A stretch of DNA of 63,980 nucleotides from Chiloscyllium plagiosum. Its lineage: Eukaryota. Under the pieces are notes generated by a model. It saw only the letters and a program-made list of their open reading frames with translations. It had not been told where the DNA came from and did no database searches. The stretch is from assembly GCF_004010195.1 (NCBI RefSeq), contig NC_057759.1, positions 2,765,187 to 2,829,166 of the forward strand, in the 5' to 3' direction. Position numbers and translations under genes: made by a program. Of this stretch, positions 7,611-63,789 are shown in pieces. Within the stretch, counting starts at the first letter, position 1. Each line of letters begins with the position of its first letter.

Positions 7611-7630
7611 CAGAGCCTCAAAGCTCTGAA

Positions 7631-8900: not shown

Positions 8901-9039
8901 ACAAAGGTTGAGCAGCCAGGCAAATTGCAAAAGGAATTGACCCATAAGGGGAAACAAGTTGTGGGTCCAACCATTCGTTGTCTGCTATTGGCATTTGGAC
9001 ACTTAAAATCTGTCAGTAACACCAGCATCGTCACATCGC

Positions 9040-14784: not shown

Positions 14785-15184
14785 AAGAATTAAAGGCTTT
14801 GGAATTCTCCTTAATTCTGCTCACTATAGCTATTTCATGACCCGTTTTATCCCGCTTGACTCCTCGCTTAAGACTGGTCCTAGCCTCCCGATATTCCTCC
14901 AGGGCCCATTCTGTTCTTAGCTGCCTGGACTTTATGTACACTTCCCTTTTCATCTTGGCTAGTCATACAATTTCTCCTGTCATCAAGAATTAAAGGCTTT
15001 GGGATTCTCCTTAATTCTGCTCACTATAGCTATTTCATGACCCGTTTTATCCTGCTTGACTCCTCGTTTAAGACTGGTCCTAGTCTCCCGATATTCCTCC
15101 AGGGCCCATTCTGTTCTTAGCTGCCTGGACTTTATGTACACTTCCCTTTTCATCTTGGCTAGTCATACAATTTCTCCTGTCATC
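14785..15184. repeat. 200-bp tandem duplication inside CR1 ORF2
   Basis: AAGAATTAAAGGCTTT...TCCTGTCATC at 14785-14984 and 14985-15184 with few mismatches; single copy in unit 1. Confidence 0.92.
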
Positions 15185-16846
15185 CACGGTCCACGAATCT
15201 TGCCTTTCCTATCCCTTGCTTTCAATGGGACATGCCTATCCTGCACTATCTTTAACCTATCTTTGAAAGCCTCCCACATATCAAATGTGGATTTCTCTTT
15301 AAATCGCTGTGTCCAATCTCCATTTCACAGCTCCTACCTAATTTTGATATAATTAGCCGTGCCCAGTTTAGTAATCTTCCCTTAGGACCACACTCATCTT
15401 TGTCTAAAACTTACAGAATTGTGGTCACTACTCCCAAAGAAACCCACCCCCACTCCACCCCGCAGTGTAACTTCTCCCACCTTGCTGGCTCGTTCTCCAA
15501 TACCAACTCCGATATGGCCCCTTTCCTTGTCGGATTATTGACATATTAGACCAGAAAACTCTCCTGGAAGCTTCTTAAAAATTCCGCCCCATCCAGACTT
15601 CTGACACAAAGTGTATCCCAGTCAATGTTGGGAAAATTAAAATCTCCCATCACCACCACCCTGTTGCCTTTACATCTTTCCATAATCAGTTTACCTATTT
15701 GTTCTTCTACCTCATGCTAACTGTTGGGAGGCCTGTAATACAGCCCCAACAATGTTAACAGCACCCTTCTTATTTCTCAGCTCCACCCAAAATGCCTCAC
15801 TACTAAAGCCCTCCATAGTGTCCTCCTTTAGCACAGCCGTGATATCATCCCTGACCGGCAATGCAACTCCTCCCCCCACTCCCCCACCCCCAACCTTTTA
15901 CTTCCCTCCCTGTCCTGTCTGAAGCATCTATATCTTTGAATATTTAGTTGCCAATCATGCCCCTCCCTCAAACAAGTCTCTGTGATTGCAATAACACCAT
16001 ACTCTCAGGCACCAATCCAAGCCCGAAGTTCATCTGCCTTACCCACTATACTCCTTGTATTGAAGTATCTGCACTTCAGGCCACCATTTCTTTTGCGTTC
16101 ATCTGCTCTCTGCCTACTCTTCCCCTTATTAATGCTATATTCATGATTCTTACAGTCTCCAGTTTCCACCTTGCTGTCTTCTCTTCAGGCTCCCTGCCCC
16201 TGCCACATTAGTTTAAAACCTCCCCAACAGCAGTAGCAAAAATTCCCCCAAGGACATTAGTTTCAGTCTGATTCAGATGTCGACCGTCCAATTTGTAATA
16301 GTCCCACCTTCCCCAGAACCGGTCCCAATATCCAACAAATCTAAACCCCTCCCTCCTACAGCATCTCTCAAGCCGCGTGTTCATCCTGCCTATTCTTTCA
16401 TTTCTACGCTGGCTAGCCTTCCTACTCTTTTTCTGCCTTTTGGTCACCTAATCACTGTATCCCTCAGCAATTCTAACCTGCCGTGTGACCAGTTCACTAA
16501 ACGTGCTATCCACGATCTCCTCAGTATCGTTGATGCTCCACATTGAGACCATCCACAGCTTCAGAGCCATCATGCGGTCAAATAAAGGGTACAGCTGGAC
16601 ACACTTCTTGCAAGAGTCAAGAACGTCAGCCACTTGCCTGAGCTCCCACATCAAGCAAGAGGCACAAGCCATGGGTCTGACTTACCCTGCCATTGTAAGC
16701 CTTAGCATTAAATCAACTAACTAAAACCAAACAACGCACTTAAATATATGAAAGAAAAGAAAGAGAAAATAAAAACCTTACCTTTCAGAGTCTTTTTCTT
16801 ATGGTTAGCGGAGGTGGAGTGGTGCGGGAGGGAGATACTGTACGTG

Positions 16847-17067
16847 GTGGGCCTGTGGAATTCATTGCCATGGAGTGCAGTGGAGACCGGGACGCTAAAT
16901 GTCTTCAAGGCAGAAATTGATGAATTCTTGATGTCACAAGGAATTAAGGGCTATGGGGAGAATGCGGGTAAGTGGAGTTGAAATGCCCATCAGCCATGAT
17001 TGAATGACGGAGTGGACTCGATGGGTCGAATGGCTTTACTTCCACTCCTATGTCTTATGGTCTTATG
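16847..17067 (+). mobile_element. 5'-truncated CR1 tail (221 bp) inserted in the CR1 5'UTR
   Basis: VVGLWNSLPWSAVETGTLNVFKAEID; (TCTTATGG)n tail; GTG on both sides; absent at ~2637 in unit 1. Second copy at 21021-21241. Confidence 0.88.
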
Positions 17068-18966
17068 GTGCAGTATCTCGGGTTTAGCCGCTGCCCAAAA
17101 TACATATTAAGTCTTTACCTTCCCAGCACCCTCCTGGTCTCCATGTCACCGTCGCTCTGTCTCCTGCTGCTCTCGAACAGGAAAAAGGCTGCGGGCTCTG
17201 AAAGTAAGAATTTAAACAGCGTCCTTACCTTCCCTGCACCCTCCTGGTCTCATGTCACCTCCACTCTGTCTCCCATTGCTCCCGGACAGGATATCGTGTA
17301 ACTTGAAAGAGTTCAGAAAAGATATGCAAGGATGTCTTCACAGTTTTAGGATTTGAGGTGAATATGCTGAGGCTGTTTTCCCTAGCGCACCGGAGGCTGA
17401 GGGCTGACCCAAGAGACATTTAGAGTCATAGAGATGTACAGCATGTAAAAAGACCATTCGGTCCAACTGTCCATGTCAAACAGTTATCCCAACCTAATCT
17501 AGTCCCATTTGCCAGCACTTGTCCCAAATCCCTCCAAACCTTTCCGATTCATATACCCATCCAGATGCCTTTTAAATGTTGCAATTGTACCATCCTCCAG
17601 CACTTCCTCTGGCAGCTCATTCCATACATTCATCACTCTCTGTGTGAAAATGTTGACCCTTAGGTCCCTTTTATATCATTCCCTGCTCACCGTAAATCTA
17701 TGCTCTCTAGTTCTGGGCTCCCACACCTCAGGGGAAAAGACTTTGTCTACTTATCCTACCCGTGCCCCTCATGATTTTATAAACGCCTATGAGGTCACCC
17801 CTCAGCCTTCAACTTTCCAGGGAAAACAGCCCCAGCTATTCAGCCTCTCCCTATAGTTCAAATCCTCCATCCTGGTGGTGTAGTCCAGAAATAGAGGGTA
17901 AGAGGTTTAGGTGATGGTGGGGGTGGGTGTTTTAAAAGTGACCTCAGGGGCAACATTTTCATTCAGAGGGTGGTCTCTGTGAAGAATCAGTTGCCAGAGG
18001 AAGTGGTGGATGACATTTAAAAGGCATCTAGATAGGTATGTGAAAAGGAATGGTTTAGAGGGATATGGGCCAATGGGACTAGATTAGGTTAGGATATCTC
18101 TACGACCCTGGCTTGCCGCTAACGTTTGTATGTTCAGTTTCTCTCTGGTGTCAGTGTCAATGCGTTGATGTCTTTTTCACCCACCCCAACCCCCTTCCCG
18201 GAATGTTAACTATTTTGTGAACAGTTGTTTCTCAACAATCTGCATTGCAGATTCATCCTGAATTTACACACTTTTTTTGCCTCCCAAAATCAGGCCCGCT
18301 CAATCTCAGTAGTATGCCAATGTTGTGAAAGATATTAACTTTTCAGGTGGAATTATCCAAAATTCAAAGAGATATCAGCCTTAACGTTTTTGCTTTTCTG
18401 CCCCTGTAAGATTCTGAATCAGCACCTTCAGGAGAATTAGTTAGAACGGAGTGAGAACAGAGCGGGAGAAAGAGAGCGTGGGATGGTGCTTTCAATGTTT
18501 CAGGATAACAAAAGAAAAGAATGTCAGATAAAAATTGGAATTGCTTTTACTGAATTTCTACTTTGAACTGATAGTGATGAGTTTTGTAGTCTCTTCTTAC
18601 GGAGTATTTGAAGATCAAAAGGTGGATGTTTCAAAATGAACAGATGAAAGGCTTATGCCTGACTCCCCTCCTCTGTGGATGCTGCCTGAACTGCTGTGCT
18701 TTTCCAGCAACGCACTATTCGACTCTGACTCTCCAGCGTCTGCAGTTCTCACCTTCACTTCAATGTCTGCAAGTCACTCCAATCCATCGGGACTGCAATG
18801 ATTTTAGACTATGATCCTGTGAGATGGAGCAAAGCATCCTGTTTCAGTAAGTTTTCAGCATCAGTGGGACTGGGTGAGAGAGCCCAGCGTTGCAGTGCAC
18901 TGAGTGTGGAACCTGGAAAGAGGCAAGGGGCTGTACATGCGTTTGTGTACAGCTGAAGCTTCAGCC

Positions 18967-19956
18967 ATGGAGAAACCTGAGGAATCCTGGCCCATGGGGA
19001 AACCATGGAAGTGTAGTGACTGCGGGAAAGGCTTTCGTGTACCGTCTGCCCTGGAAAGTCATCGACGCAGTCACACCGGGGAGAGGCCATTCTCCTGCCC
19101 TGAGTGTGGAAAGGGCTTTACACATGTATCTACTCTCTGGGCCCACCGACGGGTCCACAACGGAGAAAGGCCATTATCTTGCCCTGAGTGTGGGAAGGGA
19201 TTTACCCGCTCCTCCCACCTGCTGCCCCACTGGCGGGTCCACACCGGTGAGAGGCCCTTCAGCTGCCCTGAATGCGGGAAGGCCTTCACCGATTCCTCCG
19301 CCCTGCTGAAGCATCAGCGGGTCCACACCGGGGAGAGGCCATTCTCCTGCCCCAAGTGCGGGAAGGACTTTACCCGCTACTCCAACCTGATGAGGCACCA
19401 GGAGCTCCACACCAGGGAGAGGCCGTTCTCCTGCCCAGAGTGCGGTAAGAGCTTTAACCGCTCCTCCAGCCTGCTGGCCCACCAGTCAGTCCACTCCGGG
19501 GAGAAGCCCTTCAGCTGTCTCGAGTGCGGGAAGGCTTTCAGCAATTCTTCTGGCCTGCTGGCACACCAGCAGGTCCACACAGGGGAGAGGCCATACACCT
19601 GCTCCGTGTGTGGGAAGGGATTCAGTCAGCTGGGCAATCTGCAGAGGCATGAGTGGGTCCACACAGGGGAGAGGCCCTTCAGGTGCCGTGAATGCGGGAA
19701 GGGGTTCACTTGCTCGGCTAAGCTGATGACCCATCAGCGGGTTCATACCGGGGAGAGGCCGTTCGCCTGCTCTCAATGCGGGAAGGGATTCCTCGATTCT
19801 TCCACCCTGCTGACCCACCAGCAGGCCACCATTTCTTTTGCCGTTCATCTGTCTCTGCCTACTCTTCCCCTTATTAATGCTATATTCATGATTCTTACAG
19901 TCTCCAGTTTCCACCTCGCTGTCTTCTCTTCAGGCTCCCTGCCCCTGCCACATTAG
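18967..19956 (+). CDS. C2H2 zinc-finger protein copy B: 9 complete fingers, a truncated 10th, and a 44-aa antisense-CR1-derived tail (329 aa; expression unknown)
   Basis: Uninterrupted ORF from GCCATGG at 18967 with TGERP-linked fingers; sequence switches to antisense CR1 at 19822; TAG at 19954. Confidence 0.7.
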   Translation: MEKPEESWPMGKPWKCSDCGKGFRVPSALESHRRSHTGERPFSCPECGKGFTHVSTLWAHRRVHNGERPLSCPECGKGFTRSSHLLPHWRVHTGERPFSCPECGKAFTDSSALLKHQRVHTGERPFSCPKCGKDFTRYSNLMRHQELHTRERPFSCPECGKSFNRSSSLLAHQSVHSGEKPFSCLECGKAFSNSSGLLAHQQVHTGERPYTCSVCGKGFSQLGNLQRHEWVHTGERPFRCRECGKGFTCSAKLMTHQRVHTGERPFACSQCGKGFLDSSTLLTHQQATISFAVHLSLPTLPLINAIFMILTVSSFHLAVFSSGSLPLPH

Positions 19957-21460
19957 TTTAAAACCTTCCCGACAGTAGTAGCAAAAATTCCCCCAAGGAC
20001 ATTAGTTTCAGTCTGATTCAGATGTCGACTGTCCAATTTGTAATAGTCCCACCATCCCCAGAACCGGTCCCAATATCCAACAAATCTAAACCCCTCCCTC
20101 CTACAGCATCTCTCAAGCCGCGTGTTCATCCTGCCTATTCTTTCATTTCTACGCTGGCTAACAGTGGCACTGGTAGTAATCCCAGATCACTACTTTTGTG
20201 GTCCTCCTTTTTAACTTCTTTCTTAGCTCCTTGAATTCTGCTTTCAGGACCTCATCTCGTTTTTTTACTTATATTGTTGGTGCCTGTATGCACCAAAACA
20301 ACCGGCTATTCACCCTCCTCTTTTAGAATGCTCTGCAGCCGATCGGTGACATCCCTGACCCGAGAACCTGGGAGGCAACATATCATTCAGGAGTCCCGTT
20401 TTCGGCCACAGAACCGCCTACCTACTACCCTTACAATTGCTTCCCGTAATACTATGGCCTTACGAGTCTTTTTGTCACCATGTGCCATGATCTTGGCAAA
20501 TGCTGCCCTCCCCGATGAGCCATCTCCCTCAACAGTATCCAAAACGGTATACCTGTTTTGGAGGGAGATGACCTTAGGGTACACCTGACTGCCTTCTTAC
20601 TCTTTTTCTGCCTTTTGGTCACCCATTCACTGTCTCCCTCAGCAATTCTAACCTGCTGCGTGACCAGTTCACTAAACGCGCTATCCACGCTTTCCTCAGC
20701 ATCGTGGATGCTCCAAGTGAGTCCATCCAAAGCTCCAGAGCCATCATGCGGTCAAACAAGAGCTACAGCTGGACACACTTCATGCAAGAGTCAAGAACGT
20801 CAGTCACTTGCCTGAGCTCCCACATCAAGCAAGAGGCATAAGCCATGGGTCTGACTTACCCTGCCATTGTAAGCCTTAGCATTAAATCAACTAACTAAAA
20901 CCAAACAACGCACTTAAATATATGAAAGAAAAGAAAGAGAAAATAAAAGCCTTACCTTTCAGAGTCTTTTTCTTATGGTTAGCGGAGGTGGAGTGGTGCG
21001 GGAGGGAGATACTGTACGTGGTGGGCCTGTGGAATTCATTGCCATGGAGTGCAGTGGAGACCGGGACGCTAAATGTCTTCAAGGCAGAAATTGATGAATT
21101 CTTGATGTCACAAGGAATTAAGGGCTACGGGGAGAATGCGGGTAAGTGGAGTTGAAATGCCCATCAGCCATGATTGAGTGACGGAGTGGACTCGATGGGT
21201 CGAATGGCTTTACTTCCACTCCTATGTCTTATGGTCTTATGGTGCAGTATCTCGGGTTTAGCCGCTGCCCAAAATACATACTAAGTCTTTACCTTCCCAG
21301 CACCCTCCTGGTCTCCATGTCACCGTCGCTCTGTCTCCTGCTGCTCCCGAACAGGAAAAAGGCTGCGGGCTCTGAAAGTAAGAATTTAAACAGCGTCCTT
21401 ACCTTCCCTGCACCCTCCTGGTCTCATGTCACCTCCGCTCTGTCTCCCATTGCTCCCGGA
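19822..21460 (-). mobile_element. CR1 5' part (5'UTR and ORF1), duplicated copy
   Basis: Matches 16077-17285 and 1444-2835; retains ORF1 segment 20161-20590. Confidence 0.92.
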
Positions 21461-23014
21461 CAGGATATTGTGTAACTTGAAAGAGTTCAGAAAAGATATG
21501 CAAGGATGTCCTCACAGTTTTAGGATTTGAGATGAATATGCTGAGGCTGTTTTCCCTAGCGCATCGGAGGCTGAGGGCTGACCCAAGAGACATTTAGAGT
21601 GATAGAGATGTACAGCATGTAAAAAGACCATTCGGTCCAACTGTCCATGTCGAACAGTTATCCCAACCTAATCTAGTCCCATTTGCCAGCACTTGTCCCA
21701 AATCCCTCTAAACCTTTCCGATTCATATACCCATCCAGATGCCTTTTAAATGTTGCAATTGTACCAGCCTCCAGCACTTCCTCTGGCAGCTCATTCCATA
21801 CATTCATCACTCTCTGTGTGAAAATGTTGACCCTTAGGTCCCTTTTATATCATTCCCCGCTCACCGTAAATCTATGCTCTCTAGTTCTGGGCTCCCACAC
21901 CTCAGTGAAAAATACTTTGTCTACTTATCCTATCCGTGCCCCTCATGATTTTATAAACGCCTATGAGGTCACCCCTCAGCCTTCAACTTTCCAGGGAAAA
22001 CAGCCCCAGCTATTCAGCCTCCTCTGTGAAGAATCAGCTGCCAGAGGAAGTGGTGGATGACATTTAAAAGGCATCTAGATAGGTATGTGAAAAGGAATGG
22101 TTTAGAGGGATATGGGCCAATGGGACTAGATTAGGTTAGGATATCTCTACGACCCTGGCTTGCCGCTAACGTTTGTATGTTCAGTTTCTCTCTGGTGTCA
22201 GTGTCAATGCATTGATGTCTTTTTCACCCACCACAACCCCCTTCCCCGGGATGTTAACTATTTTGTGAACAGTTGTTTCTCAACAATCTGCATTGCAGAT
22301 TCATCCTGAATTTACACACTTTTTTTGCCTCCCAAAATCAGGCCCGCTCAATCTCAGCAGTATCCCAATGTTGTGAAAGATATTAACTTTTCAGGTGGAA
22401 TTATCCAAAATTCAAAGAGATATCAACCTTAACGTTTTTGCTTTTTTGCCCCTGTAAGATCCTGAATCAGCACATTCAGGAGAATCAGTTAGAACGGAGT
22501 GAGAACAGAGCGGGAGAAAGAGAGCGTGGGATGGTGCTTTCAATGTTTCAGGATAACAAAAGAAAAGAATGTCAGATAAAAATTGGAATTGCTTTTACTG
22601 AATTTCTACTTTGAACTGATAGTGATGAGTTTTGTAGTCTCTTCTTACGGAGTATTTGAAGATCAAAAGGTGGATGTTTCAAAATGAACAGATGAAAGGC
22701 TTATGCCTGACTCCCCTCCTCTGTGGATGCTGCCTGAACTGCTGTGCTTTTCCAGCAACGCATTTTTCGACTCTGACTCTCCAGTGTCTGCAGTTCTCAC
22801 TTTCACTTCAATGTCTGCAAGTCACTCCAATCCATCGGGACTGCAATGATTTTAGACTATGATCCTGTGAGATGGAGCAAAGCATCCTGTTTCAGTAAGT
22901 TTTCAGCATCAGTGGGACTGGGTGAGAGAGCCCAGCGTTGCAGTGCACTGAGTGTGGAACCTGGAAAGAGGCAAGGGGCTCTACATGCATTTGTGTATAG
23001 CTGAAGCTTCAGCC

Positions 23015-24130
23015 ATGGAGAAACCTGAGGAATCCCAGTCCATGGGGAAACCATGGAAGTGTGGCGACTGCGGGAAAGGCTTTCGTGTCCCATCTGCCCT
23101 GGAAAGTCATCGACACAGTCACACCGGGGAGAGGCCGTTCTCCTGCCCTGAGTGTGGGAAGGGCTTTACACATGCGTCTACCCTCTGGGCCCACCGACGG
23201 GTCCACAACGGAGAAAGGCCATTCTCTTGCCCTGAGTGTGGGAAGGGATTTACCCGCTCCTCCCACCTGCTGCCCCACTGGCGGGTCCACACCGGGGAGA
23301 GGCCCTTTAGCTGCCCCGAATGTGGGAAGGCCTTCACCGATTCCTCTGCCCTGCTGAAGCATCAGCGGGTCCACAACGGGGAGAGGCCATTCTCCTGCCC
23401 CAAGTGCGGGAAGGACTTTACCCGCTACTCCAACCTGATGAGGCACCAGGAGCTCCACACCAGGGAAAGGCCGTTCTCCTGCACAGAGTGCAGTAAGAGC
23501 TTTAACCGCTCCTCCAGCCTGCTGGCTCAGTAGTTGGTCCACTCCGGAGAGAAGCCCTTCAGCTGTCCCGAGTGTGGGAAGACCTTCAGCAATTCCTCCG
23601 GCCTGCTGGCGCACCAGCGGGTCCACACAGGGGAGAGGCCATACACCTGCTCCGTGTGTGGGAAGGGATTCAGTCAGCTGGGCAACCTGCAAAGGCACGA
23701 CTGGGTCCACACAGGGGAGAGGCCCTTCAGGTGCCCTGAGTGCGGGAAGGGGTTCACTTGCTCGGCTAAGCTGATGACCCATCAGCGGGTTCATACCGGG
23801 GAGAGGCCGTTCGCCTGCTCTCAATGCGGGAAGGGATTCCTCGATTCTTTCACCCTGCTGACCCACCAGCGGGTCCACACCGGAGAAAGGCCATTCATCT
23901 GCTCCGTGTGCGGGAAGGGATTCAGTCAGGTGGGCAACCTGTGAATGCACCAGCGTATCCACACTGGAGCGAGGCCATTCACCTGCCTGAGTGCAGAAAC
24001 GGATTCATCGATTGTCCGGCCTGTTGACCCACCAGAGGGTCCACACCAGGGACAGCCCGCTCACCTGTTGCAAGTGGGAAGGGCTTTATCCACTCCTCCC
24101 ACCGGCGGAGGTACCAGTGAGTTCACGTGC
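23015..24130 (+). pseudogene. C2H2 zinc-finger array gene, copy C (nonsense codons; could make a 5-finger peptide)
   Basis: ATG at 23015; TAG at 23531 in finger 6 and TGA at 23942 in finger 11; frameshifted terminal fingers. Confidence 0.88.
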
Positions 24131-24955
24131 CATTGCAGGGGACTGAAGGAGCAATGGCATGTGCCATTCATTGGCTGGACAGTCGACCCAGAACTAGAGA
24201 CTTCCGGGTTCAAATCCCACAGCGCAAGATGGCAGAATTGGAATTCGGTCAGAAATCTGCAGTTCTGAATCTAATGACGAAAACAATTTTGGGGATGAAG
24301 AAACGCCTAATTCACTCATGCCCTTTTTAGGGAAGGAAACTGCCAATGCGGAATGGATTCACTCAGTCGTCCCAGCTGCATCCTTTACCCGGTCTGGCCA
24401 GACCACAGCAGTGTGGTTGACCCTTTACTACACCCTCCCACCCACCACCCCAAGAAAATGAGCGGGGGGAGTTTTACTTGGATACAGTGTATAGGTTGAA
24501 ATTGCTGAGTGAGGCGACACTTCCTGCAGGTTAAGGCTATCACAAGGATTCAATGAAAATGGGACCACTCAGCTGACCAATAGTAAAGGAAGTGGGGTGG
24601 GGAGTGTGTGTGCTTTGACCTTGAGCAGTTTAAAAAGTAAGGCTACTTTTTGTACACCTTTTTGCTGGGGAGATCTGAAGGAGTCACAAAATTGAGTCAC
24701 AATAAAAGTTACCTGAACTTCCCGTGGTACTTAGACATTGAAATCTCTGAGATCTAACAGGTATTTCTTTTAAAGCTGCTCTTTTTTTTTCAGCCTCCAG
24801 CATTAAGTTTCCAATGCCATGTGTCAGAAGGAGCAGTGAATGAATAGTTCGAAATTGTAAATTTTTCAGGAGTGCAGATACTGCATCGTTTCATCAGCAT
24901 TGTAAAGTTTACCGGCAGCACCAGGAGGTATGGGCTGTGTCCACTAGAAATGATT

Positions 24956-25778
24956 TGGAGGAGCTTGTGTTCAACTGGGGTGGATAAAGTTAAAAATCAC
25001 TCAACACCAGGTTATAATCCAACAGGTTGATTTGGAAGCACTAGCTTTTGGAGCACTGCTCCGTCATCGGGTAGCTGTGGTGAAGAATCATAAGACACAG
25101 AATTTATAGCAAAAGATTATAGTGTCATGCCACTGAAATGATATATTGAACAAACCTAGATTGCTGTTAACTCTTTCATCTTTTAGAATGGGTTGCATGT
25201 TTTGGTTCATTAATATGTAAATCTCAGAACTGCCTTCAAGTCACATTCTCAACGTAACTTAAGGTTTCATATGTTTTTTTTAAAAACGACATCTCAGCTC
25301 AGACAATGCATTAAAAGTGTCAGGTTTGAGTCTATCTGTATCCCAATCTTGAGTCAGACTGGTTCTATTTCCAAAGTAGGAATTTAAAATATATTACATG
25401 GAATGACTGTCTGCAGATGTTGTGCTTTTTGGGCAAAATAGAATGTATCTGCAAATACAACTCCAGTAAATGCAAATTCATCCCATAGACTTATATGTGT
25501 GTATGCATGCATGAGAGAGAGAGTGAGTGTTTGTGTTTGCTTGGTAAAGTGTGTGCGTGATGGAGTGTAAACCTGTGTGAGGGTGTGTGTGTGTGTGTCT
25601 GAGAGAGGGCACGTGTATGAGCGAGGTCTGTGTGACTGTGTGTATGGATATGTGCTTGTGTGTGTATGAGTGTGAGAGAGTGTATAGTATATTGAGGTCT
25701 GTGATGTGACATGAACCCAAGGTCCCTTTTGGAAGCCATCCTCATGGGTTCTGAACTTGGCTATCAGCCTCTGTTCAG
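24956..25778 (-). mobile_element. 5'-truncated Penelope-like element (paralog of 6193-7010) with 15-bp TSD
   Basis: AEQRLIAKFRTHEDG / KRDLGFMSH; CCACTAGAAATGATT at 24941-24955 and 25779-25793. Confidence 0.8.
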
Positions 25779-26390
25779 CCACTAGAAATGATTAAGCAGT
25801 TACACAACACAAATTGGAGAGGGCAGGGTGGGATTTGCAGAAGGTGGGAGACTCTGGATGCTGTGATCCAGGGCAAACACATGCTGGAGGACGTTCAGCT
25901 CAGAGAGGTAGAGCTGGAAGCCAGGCTGCAGACACGTTGCGGGGGAAATGGCGAAAGTTAACCAGACACTTTATTTCAGGAGATGGTCATTCCCCTCCAG
26001 ACAGAGCCTTTTGATTGGATCAGTGGACAGTATCAGGAGGGTGTGAGTGCGAGTCAGGCCGATAATAGGGATCTGAGAGAGAAATGCAGGGTGGAAGAGC
26101 TAACTGGCTGGCTGATGGGAGTAAAAAGCATGTTGGGCAGGGGGTGATGGTGGTAAAGGACAAAATATTGACAGGGATTGTCTCCATTCTCTGCAGTTGG
26201 CATAAGGAGGCCAGATGGCATTGGAGTCTGTCTGACGCAAGATTTGGGAACCAATGTGCTCAGGTCTAGAAAAGTGGAAAAGGGAGGTTGCTGTGGTGTG
26301 GTCCAACAATATCAGGACGATGGAGCTTCTGCTGAGGGCACATGAGAAGTTAGAAGCTACAAAGACAAAGCAGAGCCTCAAAGCTCTGAG

Positions 26391-26724
26391 CGACACGGTG
26401 GCTCACTGGTCAGCATCGCTGTCTGACAGCACCAGGGACCCGAGTTTGATTCCATTCCTCATGCCCCAGACTGTGTGGGCCTTAGCAAGTTGTGTCTGCG
26501 TGGGTTACCTCTGCATGCTCTGGTTTCTTCCCACAGTTCAAAAATTTGCAGTGCAGGAAGGATCGGCTGTGCTAAAGTGTCCAGGCATGTGCAGATTAAT
26601 GTGGATTAGTCATGGGGAACTGCAGAGCTGTTGGGTAAACAGATACGTCTGGGTGGGATGCTGTTCAGAAGGTTGGTGTGAATTCGATGGGCCAAAAAGC
26701 CTGCATAGACTATATGATTCTATA
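26391..26724 (+). mobile_element. HE1/V-SINE-like tRNA SINE
   Basis: A and B boxes, conserved core and tail; paralog of 7631-7938. Confidence 0.75.
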
Positions 26725-27404
26725 TTGAGAAATGATTGCCCCAAGTCTGCTGTGACACAGAGTAGATTCCAGTTCATGGGAAACTGACATCAGGCCTGGA
26801 GAAGGTGGGATTTGTGCTGTCTCTCCCCCATCCTCTGCCCACCCACCTGTTTATTCTGTATTCTCTCTCCCCCTCATTCTCTGCCCCCATTCTCTTATCC
26901 ACCACCATCTGACCACGCAGTGTTTCACTTCCCCACCACCCCTTGTCCCCAAGTCCTTCTCTGTCCACCTGTCCATTTTCTCTCCCTCTCTCCCACCACC
27001 ATCTGACTCTGTCCATTCTGTTTCCCTTCTCCCGCGCACACTACCCACCATCCTTTCTCATGCCTCAAGCCCTCTTTGATCACTATATCAAGTCCTTCTC
27101 AGAAGAGAAAGAAAATGGAATGGTGGTGACTCTACCTGGGAGACAAGGGTGCAATAGAAATGGCTGATATTTAAAAATGAGAGTACCTAAAATGTATGCA
27201 CAAGAATCAATAAAGTCTGAAAGCATGTTCAATTCCTTTAAAAATCTGCAGGCATCTTTCTGAAACTTGCATTGAAATATGCAGAGTTAGGCCACAATTG
27301 AGGACAGGCTGTAAGGGGTGAATGGTCTTTGCCTAGTCTTGTGAAATTGGTTCCGGCTATGTAGAAGTAGTGTCACAAGGTTGAGGAGAATGGAAACACA
27401 CATT

Positions 27405-28590
27405 TCGGTCTGTGCCAATCAGATATCCTAAATTAATCTAGTTCCATTTGCCTAAATTTGGTCCATAACCTTTGAAACCCTTCTTGCTCAGATATCCATC
27501 CTGACGCCTTTTAAATGTTGAAATTGTACCAGCCTCCACCACTTCCTCTGACAGCTCATTCCAAACACGTTCCACCCTCTGTGTGAAAAGGCTACCCCTT
27601 AAGTTCCTTTTAATTTTTTCGCCTTTCTTTCTCAACGATGCCCCTCCAGTTTTAGACTTCCTCTACCTTGGGGAAAAGACCTACGAAAGTTGAGCAAAGT
27701 GCAAAAGGAATAAAGACCCATACAGAACAGTTACGCAGTCATACAGCACAGAAACAGACCCTTCAGTCCAAATAGTCCGTGCTGACTATGTTCTCAGGCT
27801 AATCTAGTCCGACTTACCAGTGTTTGACCCATATCCCTCTGAGCTGTGCCTATTCATGTATTTATGCAATGTCTTTTAAATGTAATTGTATCTGCATCCA
27901 CCACTTCCTCTGGACATTCATTCCACACACAAACCACTCTCACTGTAAAAAGAAAGAACTGGCACTTCTCATGTCTTGTTAAAATATTTCTCCTCTCACC
28001 TTCAAAATTTGCCCCTTAATCTTGAAACTCCCATCCTCAGGAAAGACTGTTCACTTCACCTATAACCCTCCTGATTTTATAGACCTCTATAAGGTCACCT
28101 CTCAATTTCCTATGCTCCAGTGAAAAGAGTCCCAGCATATTCACCTAAATATAGGTATATTCAGATGATGTGTTCAATGCTGGTGAAGGCTCAAAAGACC
28201 AAATGCGCTCATTTCTCATATTGTGTCTAGGACAGCAAGAGACCATAAGACGTGGGAGCAGAAATGAAGCCATAGCTGGTAAGTTTCTCAACCACATTCT
28301 CCCGCTATCTCCCAATGACCCTCGATCCCCTCGACACTCGAACCTATCTATCTCAGTCTTAAATATACTCAGTGACCTAGCCTCCATAGCCTTTTGTGGC
28401 AACGAATTCCATAGATTTACAACTTTCTGGCTGAAGAAGGTTCTCCTTATCTCTGTTCTAAAAGGTCTTCCCTTTACTCTAAGACTGTGCTCTCGGGTAC
28501 TCGTCTTCCCTACCAATGGAAACATTTGCTCAATGTCCATTCTGTCGAGACTGCTCTGTATTCAGTCAATTTCAATTAGATCCCTCCTGA
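27405..28590 (-). mobile_element. CR1 3' fragments
   Basis: ORFs FTQRVERVWNELSEEVVEAGT and FFSQKVVNLWNSLPQK. Confidence 0.82.
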
Positions 28591-30196
28591 GAGCGGGCTG
28601 TTAATAAGCGTGAACCAGACCCTTCAGGATGAAACACAGCAGGGATAATGTCCAGCAAAGTGGGAATGGAGTGTGTGTTTGTGTGTGCTGGAGACTTTCA
28701 GCTGTTAGGGAATGATAGAGGAAAGAAAGTTTGATACAGCAGCTGAGTGAGTGATTGCATCTGGGATTTTGGTGAAAAGTGGGAATTCGTAATATTATGG
28801 GGATGAAGTGCTTTAAGGTTTACGGGCAGGAAATGAAGTTTTAGGTGGGTTTTTGTTTTAGCTGCTCATTTCTTTCAGCCTCCAACATTGTATGTCTAAT
28901 GCTGCGCATCAGAAGGAGCGGTGAATCAGTAACTGGTATTGTTAGAAACCATATGATTTTCAACACTGCAGGTTTCAATACTGCATTGTTTCATTGGAAT
29001 TGTAAAGTTTACTGGCGGCAGCGGGAAGTGTGGGCTGTTCTCACTAGGAACGATTAAGCAGTTAGGTAACACAAAAATGAGAGGGCAGGGTGGGATTTGT
29101 CTTTCAATTTGCAGACGGTGGGAGGTTCTGGGTGCTGTGATCCGGAGCAAACACAACTGTAGTAAATTATAGTAGTCCTACAGTGTGGAATCAGGCCATT
29201 CAGCCCATGAAGTCCACTCGGACCCCTATGAAGAGAATGCCAACCCACCGTCTCCTACGCTATCTGGTTGTTCCTGCTGGTGGGTGAGACTGGATGAGGG
29301 GACAGAGCTTCAAGGTTAGGGGGAATATATTTAGGATAGAGATGGGGAGGAATTGCTTTTCCCAGATAGCAGTGATTCTATGTAATTCTCTGCCAAAGGA
29401 AGCAATAGAGGCAGCTTCATTAAGTATATTCAAGACACAGTTGGATGGGCTTTTGCATGGTAGAGGAATTAAGGGTAGTCAGGATAATACTGTTAGGAGG
29501 AGCTTACACTGTGGATAGATCAGCGAATATCTTAATGAATGGATGAGCAGGCTCAACAGGCCAAATGGCCTACTCCTGCTTTGATTACTGTGAAACTATA
29601 ACCCTGTATTTCCTGCGTCCAACCCACCTAACCAACACATCCTTGGACAGTATGGGCAATTTAGCATCGCCAATCCAAATCAAGGCAGGTGAGCGAGTAG
29701 TGCTGTGGAAAATAAATGGCAGAGAATGATAAACAGAGACAAGGAGAATAAATGTACCAGCAATCAAAGCTGGATTCAAAAGATCACAAAAATTGAAACT
29801 AAAAGCTGTGATGTCCGAATGTGTGCTGCATCGTAACAAAAATGAATGAATTGACTGCACGAGTTAGAGAGACTAATTATGATCTGGGGCTTCAGGATGA
29901 CAAGGATTGGATCCTGAATATCGGGATATGTGGCAGCCTGTCCCAGCCTGTCAACCATCCAGATACAGAATGTCAGGGAAGAAAACAAGAAAAGTAAAAC
30001 AAAATAAAAGCACATTTGGTGTTTGTGGTTAATGTTTGTTCTTTAGAAAGTAAACCAGAAATAGGGGTCTCCCAGGATTCTCAAAAGTGCTCAACTTGAG
30101 GAACCCTCTGTCCTTAACATCTGAATATTAGTACCTTGCTCTGATTTATAACAATATTTACATCAACTGAAATAAAGCATCTGTTATCAAATAGAC

Positions 30197-30652
30197 ATAG
30201 AGATGTACAGCATGGAAATAAACTTCTCAATTCAATATATCCCTGCTGACAAGATATCCTATGCAAATTTACTTCCATTTGCCAGCATTTGGCTCATATC
30301 CCTCCAAACCCTTCCTATTAATACACTCATCCTGATACAATTGTAACATTTAAAAGGCATCAGCGTCCACCACTGGCAGCTCATTCCATATATTCGCCAC
30401 CATCTGCGTGAAAGATTTGACCCTTAGGTCCCTGTAAAATCTGTTCACTTTCACCCTAAACCAATGCCCTCTGGATTTGGCACGCCTACCCTGGGGAAAA
30501 GACCTTTCCTATTTTGCATCCATGCCTCTCATGATTTTATAAACCTCGGAGGTCACCCTTCAGCCTCCGCTCCAGGGGAAACAGCACCAGCGTATTCAGC
30601 CTCTCCCTGTAGGTCAAATCTTCTAACCCTGGCAACATCCTTGTAAATCATT
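30197..30652 (-). mobile_element. CR1 3' fragment at the end of the duplicated block
   Basis: Reverse of FTRMLPGLE...GLFPLE..LRGD...WNELP plus 3'UTR. Confidence 0.8.
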
Positions 30653-31430: not shown

Positions 31431-32759
31431 GACAGCCCCATCGTCTCCAGGGCATTTAGGAATGGCCAAATGAAACTGAATCACCCAGCATCACCCTCAT
31501 CCTATGGATGGACGAGAAAACCTCCAGAAATGTCCCAGGTAGAATGTGGTACAATAGAAATAGAAATACCATTTAGTTGTTTAAAGAATATGTTGTGTTA
31601 ACTGATATTTTTAATGAGGGAAATCGCTACATTAGCTTTAAAAGACAACTTATATCCACTATGTCAGAGAACGGTAGCAACATCAGGCTTGAGTGTAAGG
31701 TATTGATTAAAGAGAAGAGAAAATTACCATGTCAAAATGCTCAAATAAATGCAATGTACGTTTGGTTCTGCAAACTGAATATTAAAAGAACACACCCAAA
31801 ATGCTGAAGAATATCAGCAGGTCTGGCAGCACCCGTGGAAAGAGAGACTTAGTTAATGCTTTGAGTTCGATAAGACTCTTCCTCACAACCGCGGTGAAAG
31901 CTAACCACAATGCTAATTAAGTATCTGATTAAATGAGAAATTCATCATATTGAGCAAAGATTGATACATAAGCTCAGGGATATCAATCACCAGGTCCTCA
32001 TTGAAAAAGGTTTCCTCATTCTATTTAAGAAAGAAGTAAAGAACATTTCAACCTATCCTCATCTGAGAAAATTGACAATAAGAAAATGTAATGAAACGAT
32101 CTTGCACAGACATTTGACAACATAGGAATTCAGATCAGCCATAAGAGTCAATTAGATATTTATCATGTGCCTCTGAAACCAATAATCAGTAAGGCCAACC
32201 TGAATGAGATGGAACTATTGATCTTGGTGCGGGTTGAGATTTGGAAAATTGTGATGAAGCAATAGTTGTGTTGACCAAGGCACCAGGGAAGTTTAGTGTT
32301 GTCCTGCTTCTAATCGACTTTGGAGAGGCCTTGCACCATTAGAGCGAGATAGCAATCTGGGGTATACTGGTGCCGTCTAAACTCGACAGGTAAACCAAAG
32401 CCATCATATATCCAGGCCTGCTTTTATACCGTGAAGTTCCAAATATACCACACTTATTGGTTGAAATCCGAAATGAACAAATTAACATTGGAATTTGAGT
32501 TTAAATCAGATACGCATTTAGTGGGGAGCAGAGGAATGTTGGCCTTCATTTCAAATGCACTGAAGTCGAAAAATAAGCAAACGTACAGGGCCACGCTAAT
32601 GAGACCATATTTGGAACGTTGTGAAAGTTTGTGCGTTTGTTACATAAGAAAAATACGTTATAATTGGACTTATGCCTCTTATCCAAAAGGCAAGTAGAAA
32701 TCGAATTCAGCCAGCTAACTGAGCTAACCGGTTCTTCCAGTGAACACACTGCAGGTAGA

Positions 32760-34585: not shown

Positions 34586-35777
34586 ATTAGCTTGTACACT
34601 TCTATCACCCCGCCATATCCTTTAGAATAATTAGTTATCCAAATTTAACCAAGTAACTGAAATTCCCGAACCACAAACCACTCTGATAAAAGCTATGTCC
34701 ACCATCTTAGAGCATCTCCCATCTTTCAGAATGTGGGAGTGATCACTAGATTTTACAGACCCCAGAATTCTGTGTTTGTGGCTGTGCTGTCATCACACAC
34801 TGACACTTGCAAGGTGACATTACCCACTCCCCAAGTGATTACCTCAAATGTGGGATATTCTGAGTCTAGTGGTTCTGAAATCTTTACGATGGAGGCTCCA
34901 GTGGGAGGTTTCACATTGTAAATGGCGAAATTGTTGAAGTGGTGAGTAGTTTTGACCATTTTTCTACAGGTTTGAGCTTTTTTTTTGCATTGCCAGTTAT
35001 CTGTGAGAGTTTCCATATCTGAAGCTGGTGTAATTCCTTTACTGTAGATCTGAATCCATGTCTATCCATTGCTCTGTTTCACCTCCCCATCCTGATCAGT
35101 TCTCTACAAAATGTCTAACCTCCTCTGTTTCATATTGCAGCGCTTGTTTGCTAAATCTGTGAGTTTCTAACATTGCCATCTTCTAACTATGAGCTGCTGA
35201 CGTATCATCTTCCCTCGGTACCTCTCACTGTCAGGAGTTATGCAATCATAGAATCATGCAATTTCGAAGTTGCAATTTGATCCATCGAGTCTACACCAAC
35301 AAAATTAATTGCCCCATACTAATCTCACTTTCCAACACTTGGTACATCGTCTTAAGTGTTATGACATTCCAAGTGCTCAGACAAGTGCTTATTAAATGTT
35401 GCGAGGTTTCCTGCTGTAGTTACTAGCCCATGCTGTCCATTCGAGATACCTAAACCCATCTGAGTGAAAAAAAAGTTCATCGAATTTTCTCCAACTGTCT
35501 TATCTCTCTGCTTGAAATGATTTCCTATTAAGCCTTCAGGTAACAGGAACAGCTGGTTTATATCCACCTCATCCATGCACCTCATGGTCTTATAGGAACT
35601 GGACGAGGCCATTCGGCCCTTTAATCCTCTCCCACCATTCAATGAGATCAAGACTGATCTGAAAGTTTCCACGTACCTGCCTTTAGGAGAAAGTGAGAAC
35701 TGCAGATGTTGGAGATCAGAGCTGAAAATGTGTTGCTGGAAAAGCGCAGCAGGCCAGGCAGCATCCAAGGCGCAGGA

Positions 35778-35815
35778 GAATCGACGTTTCGGGCATGAGC
35801 CCTTCTTCAGGAATG
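35778..35815 (-). ncRNA. Minimal type-I hammerhead ribozyme motif (mirror copy)
   Basis: Minus strand reads CATTC-CTGAAGA-A-GGGC-TCAT-GCCC-GAAA-CGTC-GATTC. Confidence 0.72.
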
Positions 35816-35820
35816 AGCCT

Positions 35821-35858
35821 CATTCCTGAAGAAGGGTTCATGCCCGAAACGTCGATTC
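35821..35858 (+). ncRNA. Minimal type-I hammerhead ribozyme motif
   Basis: CTGAAGA (35826-32), A, GGGT-TCAT-GCCC, GAAA, CGTC; predicted cut after 35853. Confidence 0.7.
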
Positions 35859-37489
35859 TCCTGCTCCTTGGATGCTGCCTGGCCTGCTGCGCTTTCCCAG
35901 CAACACATTTTCAGCACGTACCTGCCTTTGGCTGGTCCACTTAATGCCTTGGCATAACAAATTTTATATATGTGTGATTGAAAGTTAACAGCTGATCCAG
36001 CATCCACTGCCATTCGTAGAGGAGAGTTCCAAGCACCCTTTGTGTATATAACTGCTTCCTAATATCTCTCTTGTTGGCGTGGAACTTGTTCTGGAATGCC
36101 CAACTAATGGAAATATGGTAGATAAAGATAAACTGTCTTTTTCTGTGAACATTAATAAATGAATTTGATCATATAATCTTCTAACCTTCTAAAATTTGGA
36201 GAAAACGTGTCTAATTTCTATAAATTCTCTTCATATCTTAAGCACTGTAGTAAAAGTGTCGTTCTTGTGAGGCTACATCATACTCTGTCCAGTACCTAAC
36301 ATATGCCTTCTCAGGTGTGGTGCCTATATCTGCTCTCAATACTCCCAGTATAGACTTAAAAGGATCTTGATCGATCCTTTTTCAGTCCAAAATGGATGAC
36401 ATTGACTTCCCGACAATGAGATCCATCTGCTGCAGGTTAACACATTCACTTTGTCTATCACCATACCATGATGATTTTATGCAGTTATCTACACTGTCTT
36501 CAGTGCCTTCTGACATGTGTCATCAGCAATTTTCATATATGACTTCCTATGTCATTATCCAAGTTAATGAATAATGCAAATGATTGAGACACTAACACAG
36601 ATCCATTTGGGACACTACTGGTCAAATTCTGTTAATTTGAAATCCTACCCATTATCCTTATTTTCTGTCACCTGCCACTCAAACAATTTCCCAGCCATGT
36701 CAGTAATTTGCCCTCAACATCTGAGGCTGCAGCCTTTCATAGACACCGAGCTGTGCTCACGCACACACACATTCTTTTCTAACTCATTAATTATATCATA
36801 GAAGTAAGAACCCCAGCACCGATCCCTGTCGTACACCATTGAACAGCAGCCTCCAGTCACACAGTCTTCTATCACATCCCTCTGTTTGCTGCAAATAAGC
36901 TAATTCTGGATCCAACATGCCATGTTACCCCGAGAGCCATGTTATTTTTCCCTCATAATATTTGTCTTCCATTTTGCTCCTTGTCAGAAGCTTTGCTGAA
37001 ATACATTCCGAACACTTGGTCATCTCCTTGAAAGAATTCACCAGATTTGTTCAGCATTTGTTCTGACGGAGCCTCGCTGACTATCCTTGATCAAAGCTTG
37101 CCTCTTCGAGTGGAGACCAATGCTGTCCTTCAGAACTGTCGTCAGTCGTTTCCCTGATGTAATAGTACCACTGAGGTAAACACACTAGTCTGTAATTCCT
37201 GATATATATCTGTTCATATTCTTGAAAAGTAGAAGCACGTTAGCTGTCCTCAGTCCTCTGGCATCTCCCCTATGTTCAGAAAAGTAATTAGGAGATTCAG
37301 TTAGAGGCCTGGTAATTTGCACCCTCACCTCCCACAGCAGCGTGGGATCCAACTGACCAAGATCTGGGGATGTGCCCACTTGTAAACCTTCCGAAATCTC
37401 TGTTACCTCCCCATTCACTATTTCAATCTACTCAACGACAACGTATTCCTTCCTCCAGAATTCTGCACCTGCGTCCTTGTTGAACCAGT

Positions 37490-52375: not shown

Positions 52376-52619
52376 GAGATTATACTACAACTGTCCTTTG
52401 TCTCAGGGAAGGATTGAAGATTATCCACGACTGAATCAAGCCTCATCAAAGCAAGTATTTCCAGTCAGTACATCTGACAAATATGTGTTTCTGTAAACAA
52501 CAGCTTCACCACATCTTAATTTAACTCTCGACCTGGCAAAGCAGCATTGGCAACTTTGTTTATTTCTCGTATATTATAGGTAAGATGGAGTCTAACGGTA
52601 GAAATGTTGCATGTGACGA

Positions 52620-52640
52620 TAGATAGTCAGAGAGATAGAC

Positions 52641-52702
<62 letters not shown>
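52620..52702 (+). repeat. (GATA)n microsatellite
   Basis: Direct AGAT repeats, imperfect at the left end. Confidence 0.97.
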
Positions 52703-52703
<1 letters not shown>

Positions 52704-52704
52704 A

Positions 52705-53425
52705 GGTGCGCAATCACCTCTATTCAAGGCCTGAAAGGACCCTCCCACATCCATCAAAGTTTCACCTGAACATCCACCAATATCATTTCTTGTATCCATT
52801 GTTCCCGATGCGGTCTCCTTTACATTGGGGAGACTGGGCGCCTTCACGCAGAGCACTTTAAGGAACATCTCCAGGACACCCGCATCAATTAACTCCACCG
52901 CCCCATGGCCTAATTTTTCAACTCCCCCTCCCACTCTGCCGAGGACATGCAGGTCCTGGGCCTCCTCCACCGCCACTCCCTCACCACCCGACGTCTGGAG
53001 CATGAATGCCTCATCTTCTGCCACAGAACACTGCAACCCCACAGCATTAATGTAGACATCACCAGTTTCCTCATTTCCTCTGCCTCCACCTTATCTCAGC
53101 ACCAAACTTCCAGCTCAGCACCATCCTCATGACCTGTCCTACTTGCCAATCTTCCTTCCTACCTTTCGGCTCTTTCCTCTCTCTGACCTATCACCTTCAT
53201 CCCCACCCCCATCCGCCCATTGTACTCTTTGCTGCCTTCTATGCAGAACCAACACCCCTTCCATTTATCTCTCCAGCCTGGAGGCTCTCCCGCCATTCCT
53301 GATGAAGGGCTTTTGCCTGAAGTTTCGATTTTCCTGCTCCGCGGATGCTACCTGACCTGCTGTTGTTTACCAGCATCATTCTAATCTAGATTCTGGTTTC
53401 CAGCATCTGCAGTACTCACTTTCCC
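52705..53425 (+). mobile_element. 5'-truncated Penelope-like element (GIY-YIG endonuclease plus terminal repeat with decayed hammerhead)
   Basis: Translation NIISCIHCSRCGLLYIGETGR...EHL...FNSPSHS...RRLEHECLIF..TLQPHSINVD; CTGATGAAGGGCTTTTGCC at 53299. Confidence 0.88.
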
Positions 53426-54764
53426 ATAGATGGATGGAAATGACATTTGCTACATAAATCTCTAATAATACTTTTCATGATAGATTACATATCTATCAAA
53501 ATTGCACGATTTCATTCAGACTGTAACTCCTGAGCCCTGGTTTAATGTGCATGTCTTCCTTTCTTACCTTCATATACCTCCCATCGATGAAAAAAATAAT
53601 GAAATGATAGGATTTGTTGTCAAACATCATGCTACGAACAGAATTAACCCAGTGATGTCAAAAAGTTAGAAACAAGATTAAATCACAAACGTTAAATATT
53701 AACCCTTGGGGAAAAAGGAATGCACTAATTAGGCAACAACTCCATTGAAATAACTTTCAAGTAGTAAACAAAAATTCTATACCATCTGACAATGCTTCCC
53801 GCTAAATTTCCGTCAGAATTCAGACACATATAAATCATATTCCGAGTTACTTACACCATTGTTTTCATGGAAGGGAAGATCGAGTTAATGTTTGCATATA
53901 ACTCCTTTTTTCAAGAAGGGAAAGGTGTGAATTTTTCCCAGAAGAGAAACAATCCTGAAGCTGGCAGGATCTCCAAGTGTCTCTCTCACTCCAGTACGTG
54001 AACCACACTGACAAATTCTGCAAGAGTCTGTATACTACTTTTTAAATTATCTACTAATCTCGTTACGTAGCCAGAGAAGTTTTTTTTTCAAGATGTGTGA
54101 AAGCGGTGTTGCAATTGCAACAAAATAAGGACTGAAAACATGCACGGAAACAAAACTGTATTGCTGTTTCAGATGGATGGAAATCAATTCTTCTTGGAAT
54201 TGTATCTCATTCCGGAGTGTGCAGTAGACAGAACCGTGACTGAAAACTTTTCTTTACAAAATAAAAGTGGTGGACACCGTGCAACATTGCACATATGTCA
54301 CCCCTGACAGAGGAAATGTCGCACTGGAGGCAACATCTCAGCATCTATGGAATACCAACGATTAAATGATGGCTTTGTTGCAATTGTCTCATGCCTTCAG
54401 CTGAGAGAAAACAGATAAGATTAAAGTCCACCAGCACAAGTTCCAAGGTTCAAGCTCACGCGTATTGCTGCGAGATAAAGACGTTAGCTTGGTCTGACAG
54501 TGAGAATCAGCAGACGCGCATACACACATCGGCAATGCCTACTGTCACCGCCCCTAGCGTTCACAGCGCAGAATCACAGATTGGAACAGTGCTATCAGAT
54601 CAGATAGCAGGGAAAGATTATTTTATGGTCAAATACTGTCAAAGTGGGGAGTGATTCCCTCAATCCTGGAGAACGGTTCATTTCTTTCCTCTGTTGAATT
54701 TATCTACACCCATGTGCCCATTAATTAAATAATCTGTGTCCGCTAGCAAATGGTATTAAGTTCT

Positions 54765-54939: not shown

Positions 54940-55360
54940 CGAAACAATATTTCAGGTGAAGCAGCATTTCAACTGTACCTCCTCTAATAATATGTATTGA
55001 ACTCGCTGCACTCAATGTGGCCTACTCTACATTGGCGAAACCAAATACAGACAAGATGAACACTTTACAGAACACCTCCAGTGTGTGCACAAGCAAGACC
55101 CCAACTTTTTTGGCAGCCAGTCAATTTAACACAGGTCACATGCCAATGTGTCCTTCCTCGGCATGTTGCAGTGTTCCAGTGAATCACAGTGTAAACTTGA
55201 AGGGAAAAAGTCTCATCTTCACACTAGGCACTTTGCAAGGGTTTGGAATTAATGTTGAGATCAACACCTTCAATTTGTGAATCCACTCCCTCCCGTTCTC
55301 TTAGCTATGTCATCTCTCCACTCCAACCCCTCATGCTGCCTGCTCCCCCCCTCCATTTCA
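54940..55360 (+). mobile_element. Penelope-like GIY-YIG fragment
   Basis: FQVKQHFNCTSSNNMY*TRCTQCGLLYIGETK...LIFTLGTLQGFGINVE. Confidence 0.8.
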
Positions 55361-55512: not shown

Positions 55513-55667
55513 TAAAAGAAAACTGCAGATGTTGGAATGCAGGCAGGAGGCTGGAAGGACACTGCAGGCCAGACAGCATCAGACAGTGAAAAAGTCGACG
55601 TTCGGTTGAAACCTTTCTCCAGAATTATTCTGAAGAAGGATTACACCCGAAACCTTGACTTCTCCAC
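55513..55667. mobile_element. Fold-back Penelope-terminus element, subfamily 2 (diverged)
   Basis: Centre CAGAAT-T-ATTCTG (55626); right arm CTGAAGAAGGATTACACCCGAAACCTTGACTTCTC; similar to 63623-63785. Confidence 0.65.
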
Positions 55668-63785: not shown

Positions 63786-63789
63786 ATCA

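Follow-up and report, generated by a model that had tools for sequence, protein, structure and literature searches.

The closest described systems are the EN+ Penelope-like elements (PLEs), whose insertions, as far as the available text of two studies describes them, consist of an inverted 5'-truncated pseudo-LTR (pLTR) with a 30-40-bp tail at one end and a TSD (PMC3846280; PMC8557442). Minimal hammerheads (min-HHRs) within pLTRs, inverted pLTR arrangements and the one-sided tail, which a first-pass annotation of the present locus had given as established for PLEs, are indeed published (PMC3846280; PMC8557442; PMC4209133, in the parts available). Dual min-HHRs on opposite strands about 100-700 bp apart, and many solo motifs derived from truncated PLEs, are also already reported in the accessible part of PMC4209133. 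Both the combination of inverted pLTR, tail and TSD and the opposite-strand min-HHRs are in print. Two further systems are close: (i) PAc (Poseidon of Anolis carolinensis), of a different clade, whose protein cleaves and extends both target strands and whose two reverse transcription start sites bound the tail (Frangieh 2024, PMC11167929, available text), the same text describing neither head-to-head products nor a hot spot of 5' ends; and (ii) the non-LTR retrozymes (Li, Clavereau, Pollet; 10.64898/2026.07.22.740005), presented in the available text as non-coding and pLTR-derived tandem arrays of head-to-tail units, every one of which bears a hammerhead.

The locus analysed here lies at 35670-35929 of the window, i.e. 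the whole 63,980-nucleotide stretch of shark (Chiloscyllium plagiosum) DNA, and is composed of the following features:

35670-35684, no strand: left TSD, 15 bp, exact repeat of 35915-35929.
35685-35720, minus strand: 36-nt PLE tail, the element's extreme 3' end, on the left arm only; same tail in the copy at about 53390-53425.
35721-35817, minus strand (sense on minus): left arm, a 5'-truncated PLE terminal segment starting 7 nt upstream of CUGA.
35783-35810, minus strand: core of a minimal type I hammerhead, with the cut predicted at 35783/35782.
35813-35814, minus strand: family-wide hot spot of inner (5') ends, from contig loose ends.
35817-35818, no strand: head-to-head junction, apparently blunt (-7/-8), without microhomology.
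35818-35914, plus strand: right arm, a second 5'-truncated copy with a tail-less end.
35826-35853, plus strand: second minimal hammerhead core, predicted cut after 35853.
35915-35929, no strand: right TSD, 15 bp.

This architecture resembles the EN+ PLE insertions in its head-to-head inverted pLTR pieces, in a 36-nt tail carried by one arm and in a TSD round the whole unit. It differs from the examples in the available text of PMC3846280 and PMC8557442 by its 15-bp TSD (8-10 bp in the rotifer examples) and by the lack of an ORF, none being found at the palindrome, where both copies are reduced to about 100-130 nt. The two 3' ends match the two tail-bounding start sites of PAc. The resemblance to retrozymes stops at the non-coding, hammerhead-bearing, pLTR-derived nature of the sequence: the two copies are joined head to head, a single sense hammerhead lies on each strand, and no tandem array of hammerhead units is present at 35670-35929.

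Most of the annotated architecture was confirmed. The arms (35721-35817 and 35819-35915) measure 97 nt each and are 97% complementary, with the three announced mismatches at 35740/35896, 35771/35865 and 35799/35837, and the 36-nt tail is confined to one arm. The perfect 15-bp TSD is equally real: the only other copy of the 15-mer 35670-35684 in the window, with at most 1 mismatch allowed, is the exact one at 35915-35929, and two matches were obtained in 0 of 100 shuffles. The predicted hairpin fold (-194.8 kcal/mol, z = -25 against chance) agrees with the long dsRNA hairpin that the annotation expected from transcription, here predicted upon read-through. Two details had to be corrected. The TSDs enclose 230 bp (35685-35914) and not 231 bp, base 35915 being common to arm and TSD. 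The C at 35818, taken for a 1-nt loop, was probably templated as the first base of the right arm; since longer family copies in contigs carry G on the plus strand after 35817, the join at 35817/35818 appears blunt (-7/-8, counted from the C of CUGA).

Loose ends leading to unique flank pile up at 35684-35686 in three DNA runs. One contig of a related species (run X1, record 1) terminates precisely at 35684, the last base of the TSD, a branch that may reflect an empty allele, an excision or a SNP. A contig of a second species (run X9, record 17; 35403-35708) contains the left flank and 24 nt of tail, with 14 differences over 306 nt; these 24 nt are fewer than the 31 nt of the bridging rule, and the contig suggests that the insertion is older than the split from that species. 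No empty-site contig is present among those listed, and the repeat itself is perfect at 15 bp. The left flank at 35582-35665 is a separate, moderately repeated sequence of raised depth in the three DNA runs, with no second copy in the window. From the single RNA run, a poly(A) single-cell one, 0 reads were placed, and this run is uninformative on expression or circular RNA.

The arm and the tail could be attached to a PLE by means of a longer copy in the same window:

52704-53425, plus strand: longer 5'-truncated PLE copy inserted at a (GATA)n run, with a broken GIY-YIG endonuclease, a pyrimidine-rich UTR, arm and tail; its hammerhead is degenerate.

Here the GIY-YIG remnant (52704-53090) is followed in order by the pyrimidine-rich UTR, hammerhead, arm and tail. 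The palindrome arm with its tail shares 76% identity over 132 nt with 53294-53425, the end of this GIY-YIG-bearing copy, a link that runs via a sister subfamily. As arm and tail end this copy, the tail is the PLE 3' end and the palindrome consists of two 5'-truncated PLE ends. The remnant matches two Chiloscyllium punctatum RT-GIY-YIG proteins (73% and 64%), in which the GIY-YIG matches, and an RT match in one of them, are all under the Pfam cut-offs; a Pfam search with the broken remnant 52704-53090 itself returned nothing. The CX2-5CxxC linker, given as a mark of the Neptune and Nematis clades in the available text of PMC8557442, was found in 76 of 80 proteins with a Y[IV]G[EQ]T motif, among them P0002, the best match of the remnant, the remnant itself being truncated inside the linker region. 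By this linker motif the element is classed as a Neptune/Nematis-type PLE, taken as a joint class. The long copy adjoins the end of the (GATA)n run with a 6-bp repeat (52618-52703 / 53426), in agreement with a preference of Neptune elements for microsatellites that the same available text suggests. For the exact subfamily of the palindrome, the best match to a full-length ORF reaches only 52%, and longer copies of this subfamily extend past 35817 into a common upstream sequence in contigs of three species. The 27 listed protein N-termini showed no resemblance to the arm reading frames, which had been considered because an ATG in the arm could start the ORF. The locus thus shows the 3' terminus of an RT and GIY-YIG element (via the sister subfamily), a tail at one end and an inverted 5'-truncated copy with variable breakpoints. 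A second, older GIY-YIG remnant, about 42% identical to P0002, occurs at 54950-55250, with no adjoining hammerhead end found. The window also holds what we take, from their motifs, to be C2H2 zinc-finger clusters and LINE-like remnants. The C2H2 cluster is segmentally duplicated (1-12900, 14400-30200 and 62000-63000; about 84-97% identity between blocks), several copies having stops or frameshifts.

The hammerhead announced on each strand (CTGAAGA-A-stemII-GAAA-CGTC) was retrieved as CUGA..GAAA..GUC cores at 35826-35853 (plus) and 35810-35783 (minus), and the predicted cut after 35853 is correctly placed on the former. The minus core is made of CUGAAGA, an extra A, a 4-bp stem II, GAAA, a self-complementary ACGU and C17; the arm difference at 35837 creates a U-G wobble in stem II of the plus core. 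The min-HHR features found are the CUGANGA / GAAA / UH core, the extra base, G10.1-C11.1 and palindromic positions 15-16. The min-HHRs in the available text of PMC4209133 are alike in their full core, the extra nucleotide before G10.1, the G10.1-C11.1 pair, the palindromic 15/16 positions and the lack of helix III. They differ in stem II (4 bp here against 7-8 bp in Schistosoma), in helix I, which here comprises just 2 bp, a U-U mismatch and 1 bp instead of 4-5 bp and shows no both-sides change, and in spacing, the two cores here starting 16 nt apart against about 100-700 bp for dual opposite-strand min-HHRs. In the 9 window arms, a small, related and partly self-derived set, 91% of the stem II cells are paired, one pair being C-G in 4 arms, U-A in 4 and U-G in 1, and the count of both-sides changes was matched by 2 of 500 shuffles.

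The Infernal comparison with hammerhead models that the annotation had proposed was negative: the Rfam hammerhead models gave no match at gathering score in the whole window and none at E<=10 over 35500-36100, where only a generic hairpin and other sub-threshold matches appeared. The Rfam mir-3179 match (35773-35863; 62.7 bits against a gathering score of 90) was taken as a generic hairpin match, as were the other Rfam miRNA matches, all below threshold. The mir-3179 model has some letters in common around the GAAACGUC core, probably through generic hairpin scoring.

For stem II, the predicted pairing probability is 0.95-1.0 when an arm is folded alone and 0.0 when the full element is folded, and the hammerhead is predicted to be unable to fold inside the full hairpin. 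Each strand holds one sense core, so that a cis dimer is impossible. Hammerhead activity at the palindrome locus is accordingly predicted to be unlikely. As background, and within the available text of each source, no activity was reported for the min-HHR monomer (PMC4209133), 1 of 9 Xenopus retrozyme dimers cleaved (10.64898/2026.07.22.740005), and the PLE protein assists hammerhead cleavage, which is dispensable for insertion in vitro (PMC11167929).

Further copies of the family are present in the window:

12184-12384, no strand: sister palindrome with the same tail and tail-less ends, 15-16-bp TSD, centre +12/+1, TGA microhomology.
9545-9667, minus strand: solo arm with tail, 5-6-bp TSD, 5' end about -4.
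55516-55667, no strand: older sister-subfamily palindrome, centre -3/-3, short right arm.
63628-63786, no strand: older sister-subfamily palindrome, centre about -2/0, short right arm.
3947-4060, plus strand: solo arm, start +2; repeated at 18645-18757 and 22693-22804.

The last three segments represent one event spread by segmental duplication. The right arms at 55516-55667 and 63628-63786 stop about 10 nt past the GUC site and not at the usual tail-less end. The family occupies about 2.1% of the called bases of the window, and 47,115-68,494 contigs per DNA run match the arm (a figure that is not a copy number); the palindrome is a single copy among very many.

Counted from the C of CUGA, the palindrome centres differ in all four cases in the window (-7/-8, +12/+1, -3/-3 and about -2/0). 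The closest sister (12184-12384) has the same outer ends and another centre, which breaks the hammerhead, intact on neither arm. Four different centres and a sister with broken cores mean that this is not one self-copying palindrome. In contigs, the 6 opposite-strand joints shown among 15 of the 56 listed are likewise all different, symmetric joints being uncountable there as the comparison stretch is a single arm. The comparison of centre junctions had been offered in the annotation as the means to refute a self-propagating family, and in the copies covered here it speaks against one. Of the two readings proposed there, the discrete ribozyme-bearing fold-back element, which would have been an undescribed system, is contradicted by these centres and by those of the metagenome family described below, while the minimal Penelope insertion product is supported by arms that are PLE 3' ends, the tail, the TSD and the varying centres. 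The fixed internal sequence, terminal inverted repeats and fixed TSD length of fold-back families or MITEs were not found, as centres and arm and TSD lengths vary.

When metagenome contigs were scanned for the hammerhead core, at least 119 loci were retrieved, which by inspection are unlike the shark arms outside the core; the listed loci are reduced to 104 distinct ones after merging of same-locus groups, 93 of which have at least 180 nt on each side. Among the matches listed, (i) 22 of the 93 usable distinct loci are head-to-head inverted, (ii) the axes of these 22 palindromes lie at -30 to 0 in 15 cases, at -31 to -60 in none, beyond -60 in 6 and at +14.5 in 1, (iii) a direct repeat was called in 10 of the 22, measuring 12-15 bp in eight and being weak, with 8-9 bp, in two, and (iv) the 3' ends (n=67) are bimodal, with 28 at 60-105, 7 at 106-125 and 32 at 126-170. 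The two groups of 3' ends, about 50 nt apart, correspond to ends with and without tail. Members of one family (L023, L032, L107, L117) have different centres, and L023 is a zero-loop palindrome. Judging from these loci, the head-to-head layout is a general product of PLE insertion. The exact arm pattern was absent from the metagenome contigs, and the hammerhead pattern from the viral contigs. Longer palindromes of different families with similar axes were also seen (L057, L066 and L106 at -219 to -227; L009 and L110 at -142), as were many 5' extents at -219 to -300, possibly a second boundary such as the start of a full pLTR, and a retrozyme-like locus (L080) whose arm recurs head to tail in units of about 70 nt.

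The inner ends accumulate just upstream of the hammerhead. Indeed, 9 of 10 arm starts in the window, from 6 independent short insertions, lie at -8 to +2 (a count that leaves out the long copy at 52704 and the weak fragments 31801-31844 and 54644-54681). In contigs of three related species, among the 18 of 807 entries listed, 35813/35814 are the top inner loose ends with heterogeneous flank in 3 of 3 DNA runs (165 and 226; 285; 259 contigs), comparable to the outer end 35684 (193; 305; 278), contig counts in repeats being a biased sample. Among the metagenome matches listed (n=67, 6 hand-picked groups), 30 of the 5' extents fall at 0 to -35, 4 at -36 to -70, 6 at -71 to -175 and 27 beyond, to which a constant truncation rate is a poor fit (p about 1e-5); subfamily divergence may inflate the short class, but not the axes. 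The inner ends of these listed loci are scattered over -1 to -35 and do not fall on one base. In the shark family, the base at 35814, which precedes CUGA by 4 nt, is the A in a TCA that resembles an initiator, the TCA/YA context being judged by eye. The pile-up suggests an RNA 5' end reached by run-off, which would probably be a transcription start.

Two other origins were considered for these ends. Self-cleavage was rejected, as the ends at 35813/35814 pile up about 30 nt upstream of the predicted cut (35783/35782), and short copies from a spliced RNA with an upstream exon are unsupported, the off-diagonal matches coming only from the inverted arms (67 loci, 6 hand-picked groups, among the matches listed). 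Within 35779-35818, 6 of the 12 joints listed run from the hot spot (35813, 35814 or 35818) to 35779-35781, which lies just 3' of the predicted cut. One of these six goes back 38 and so duplicates the hammerhead core head to tail, an arrangement in which a dimer could form. In the literature covered, neither this shark family nor an accumulation of 5' ends ahead of the hammerhead is described; the family may be catalogued in Repbase or Dfam, or in subscription papers or supplements.

Very probably, the palindrome is a PLE end built anew at insertion. As to the route, we favour, with modest confidence, a one-off Neptune/Nematis-type PLE insertion product that arose through two nicks, two run-off cDNAs and their head-to-head joining. 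The PLE RT-endonuclease would make two nicks 15 nt apart, both of which would prime reverse transcription on PLE RNA, one at a tail-inclusive start and the other 36 nt inside; each cDNA would run off the RNA 5' end, probably the transcription start, a few bases upstream of the hammerhead, and the two cDNA ends would be joined head to head. The hammerhead would be a pLTR passenger, locked and inactive in the hairpin of a read-through transcript. The two start sites and the priming on both strands are taken from the available text of PMC11167929, which concerns a different clade, and we infer the run-off and the joining. Several points speak against this scheme, among them the scatter of the metagenome inner ends over -1 to -35. 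The element of Frangieh is a Poseidon and not a Neptune. In D. virilis, moreover, 46 nt separate the start site from a 75-bp intron downstream of it (PMC2377424). As this intron ends in helix I (PMC4209133, available text), the start is placed about 120 nt upstream of the hammerhead and does not adjoin it.

A possible, though rather doubtful, alternative keeps the same PLE identity and requires one cDNA, which would fold back or switch template onto itself or onto antisense RNA and copy itself, the boundary near the hammerhead then being due to RT pausing or release at RNA structure, or to trimming of an unstable longer palindrome, instead of a transcription start. Self-priming from palindromes at inverted junctions was argued by Arkhipova 2013 (PMC3846280, available text), and such a route is consistent with the 3-nt microhomology at the centre of 12184-12384, with arms that share the same subfamily variant within an insertion, and with asymmetric joints that pair 35795-35817 with 35738-35769. 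The minority variant at 35754 present in both arms (about 15% of depth) fits the copying of one molecule as well as one source gene. However, the blunt junction at 35817/35818 and the zero-loop L023 are poorly explained by a simple fold-back primer, and partnerless solo arms end at the same hot spot (9545-9667; contig loose ends). Furthermore, RT is in general expected to stall at a structure on the 3' side of stem II, whereas the pile-up is upstream of CUGA.

It is improbable that the palindrome belongs to a discrete non-autonomous, retrozyme- or SINE-like family, with the whole palindrome or a dedicated 130-nt unit as its RNA and the PLE protein moving it in trans. Its very high abundance, in the contigs of each run as in the window, and the sharpness of both ends would suit such a family, non-autonomous PLE derivatives are published (10.64898/2026.07.22.740005; PMC8557442, in the parts available), and a dedicated single-arm template is indistinguishable from a short PLE transcript in the present data. 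Against it stand the differing centres of the four window palindromes and of the L023, L032, L107 and L117 family, the broken cores of the sister palindrome, the longer copies that run into common upstream PLE sequence, a hammerhead predicted unable to fold within the hairpin, and a non-tandem layout. An origin from a DNA transposon, as a MITE or another derivative bounded by long terminal inverted repeats, or the chance meeting of two unrelated insertions, for which the short, palindromic, non-coding and TSD-flanked character could speak, is effectively refuted, because the 36-nt tail makes the inverted repeat non-terminal, TSD lengths vary (15, 15-16 and 5-6 in the window; 12-15 in the metagenome loci), solo arms occur, the arm forms the terminus of an RT-GIY-YIG element, metagenome loci show the same layout and a single TSD encloses both arms.

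In summary, the palindrome is real and explained, and its layout, already described for PLEs, is common in this genome and in unrelated loci. The formation of pLTRs and of inverted ends is stated to be unresolved (PMC8557442, available text; PMC2377424), and mini-palindromes, as a class, record where PLE reverse transcription starts and stops. The accumulation of ends upstream of the hammerhead, which recurs in non-shark loci, leads to a concrete prediction that 5'-end mapping and the in vitro PLE system can address. Mini-palindromes transcribed within host introns or UTRs would be an abundant source of long dsRNA. It is quite possible, if still somewhat doubtful, that across animals hammerhead-bearing PLEs make an RNA, short or long, with its 5' end just upstream of the hammerhead, on which reverse transcription started at the tail would yield a 95-140-nt 'strong-stop-like' cDNA. 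If so, one such cDNA inserted would give a solo arm and two a TSD-flanked palindrome, while a cDNA that jumped successfully to a full transcript, at its 3' end, would restore the pLTR. Mini-palindromes would then be the fossil record of the missing step of PLE replication, and would account for the solo minimal hammerheads that animal genomes contain in their thousands.
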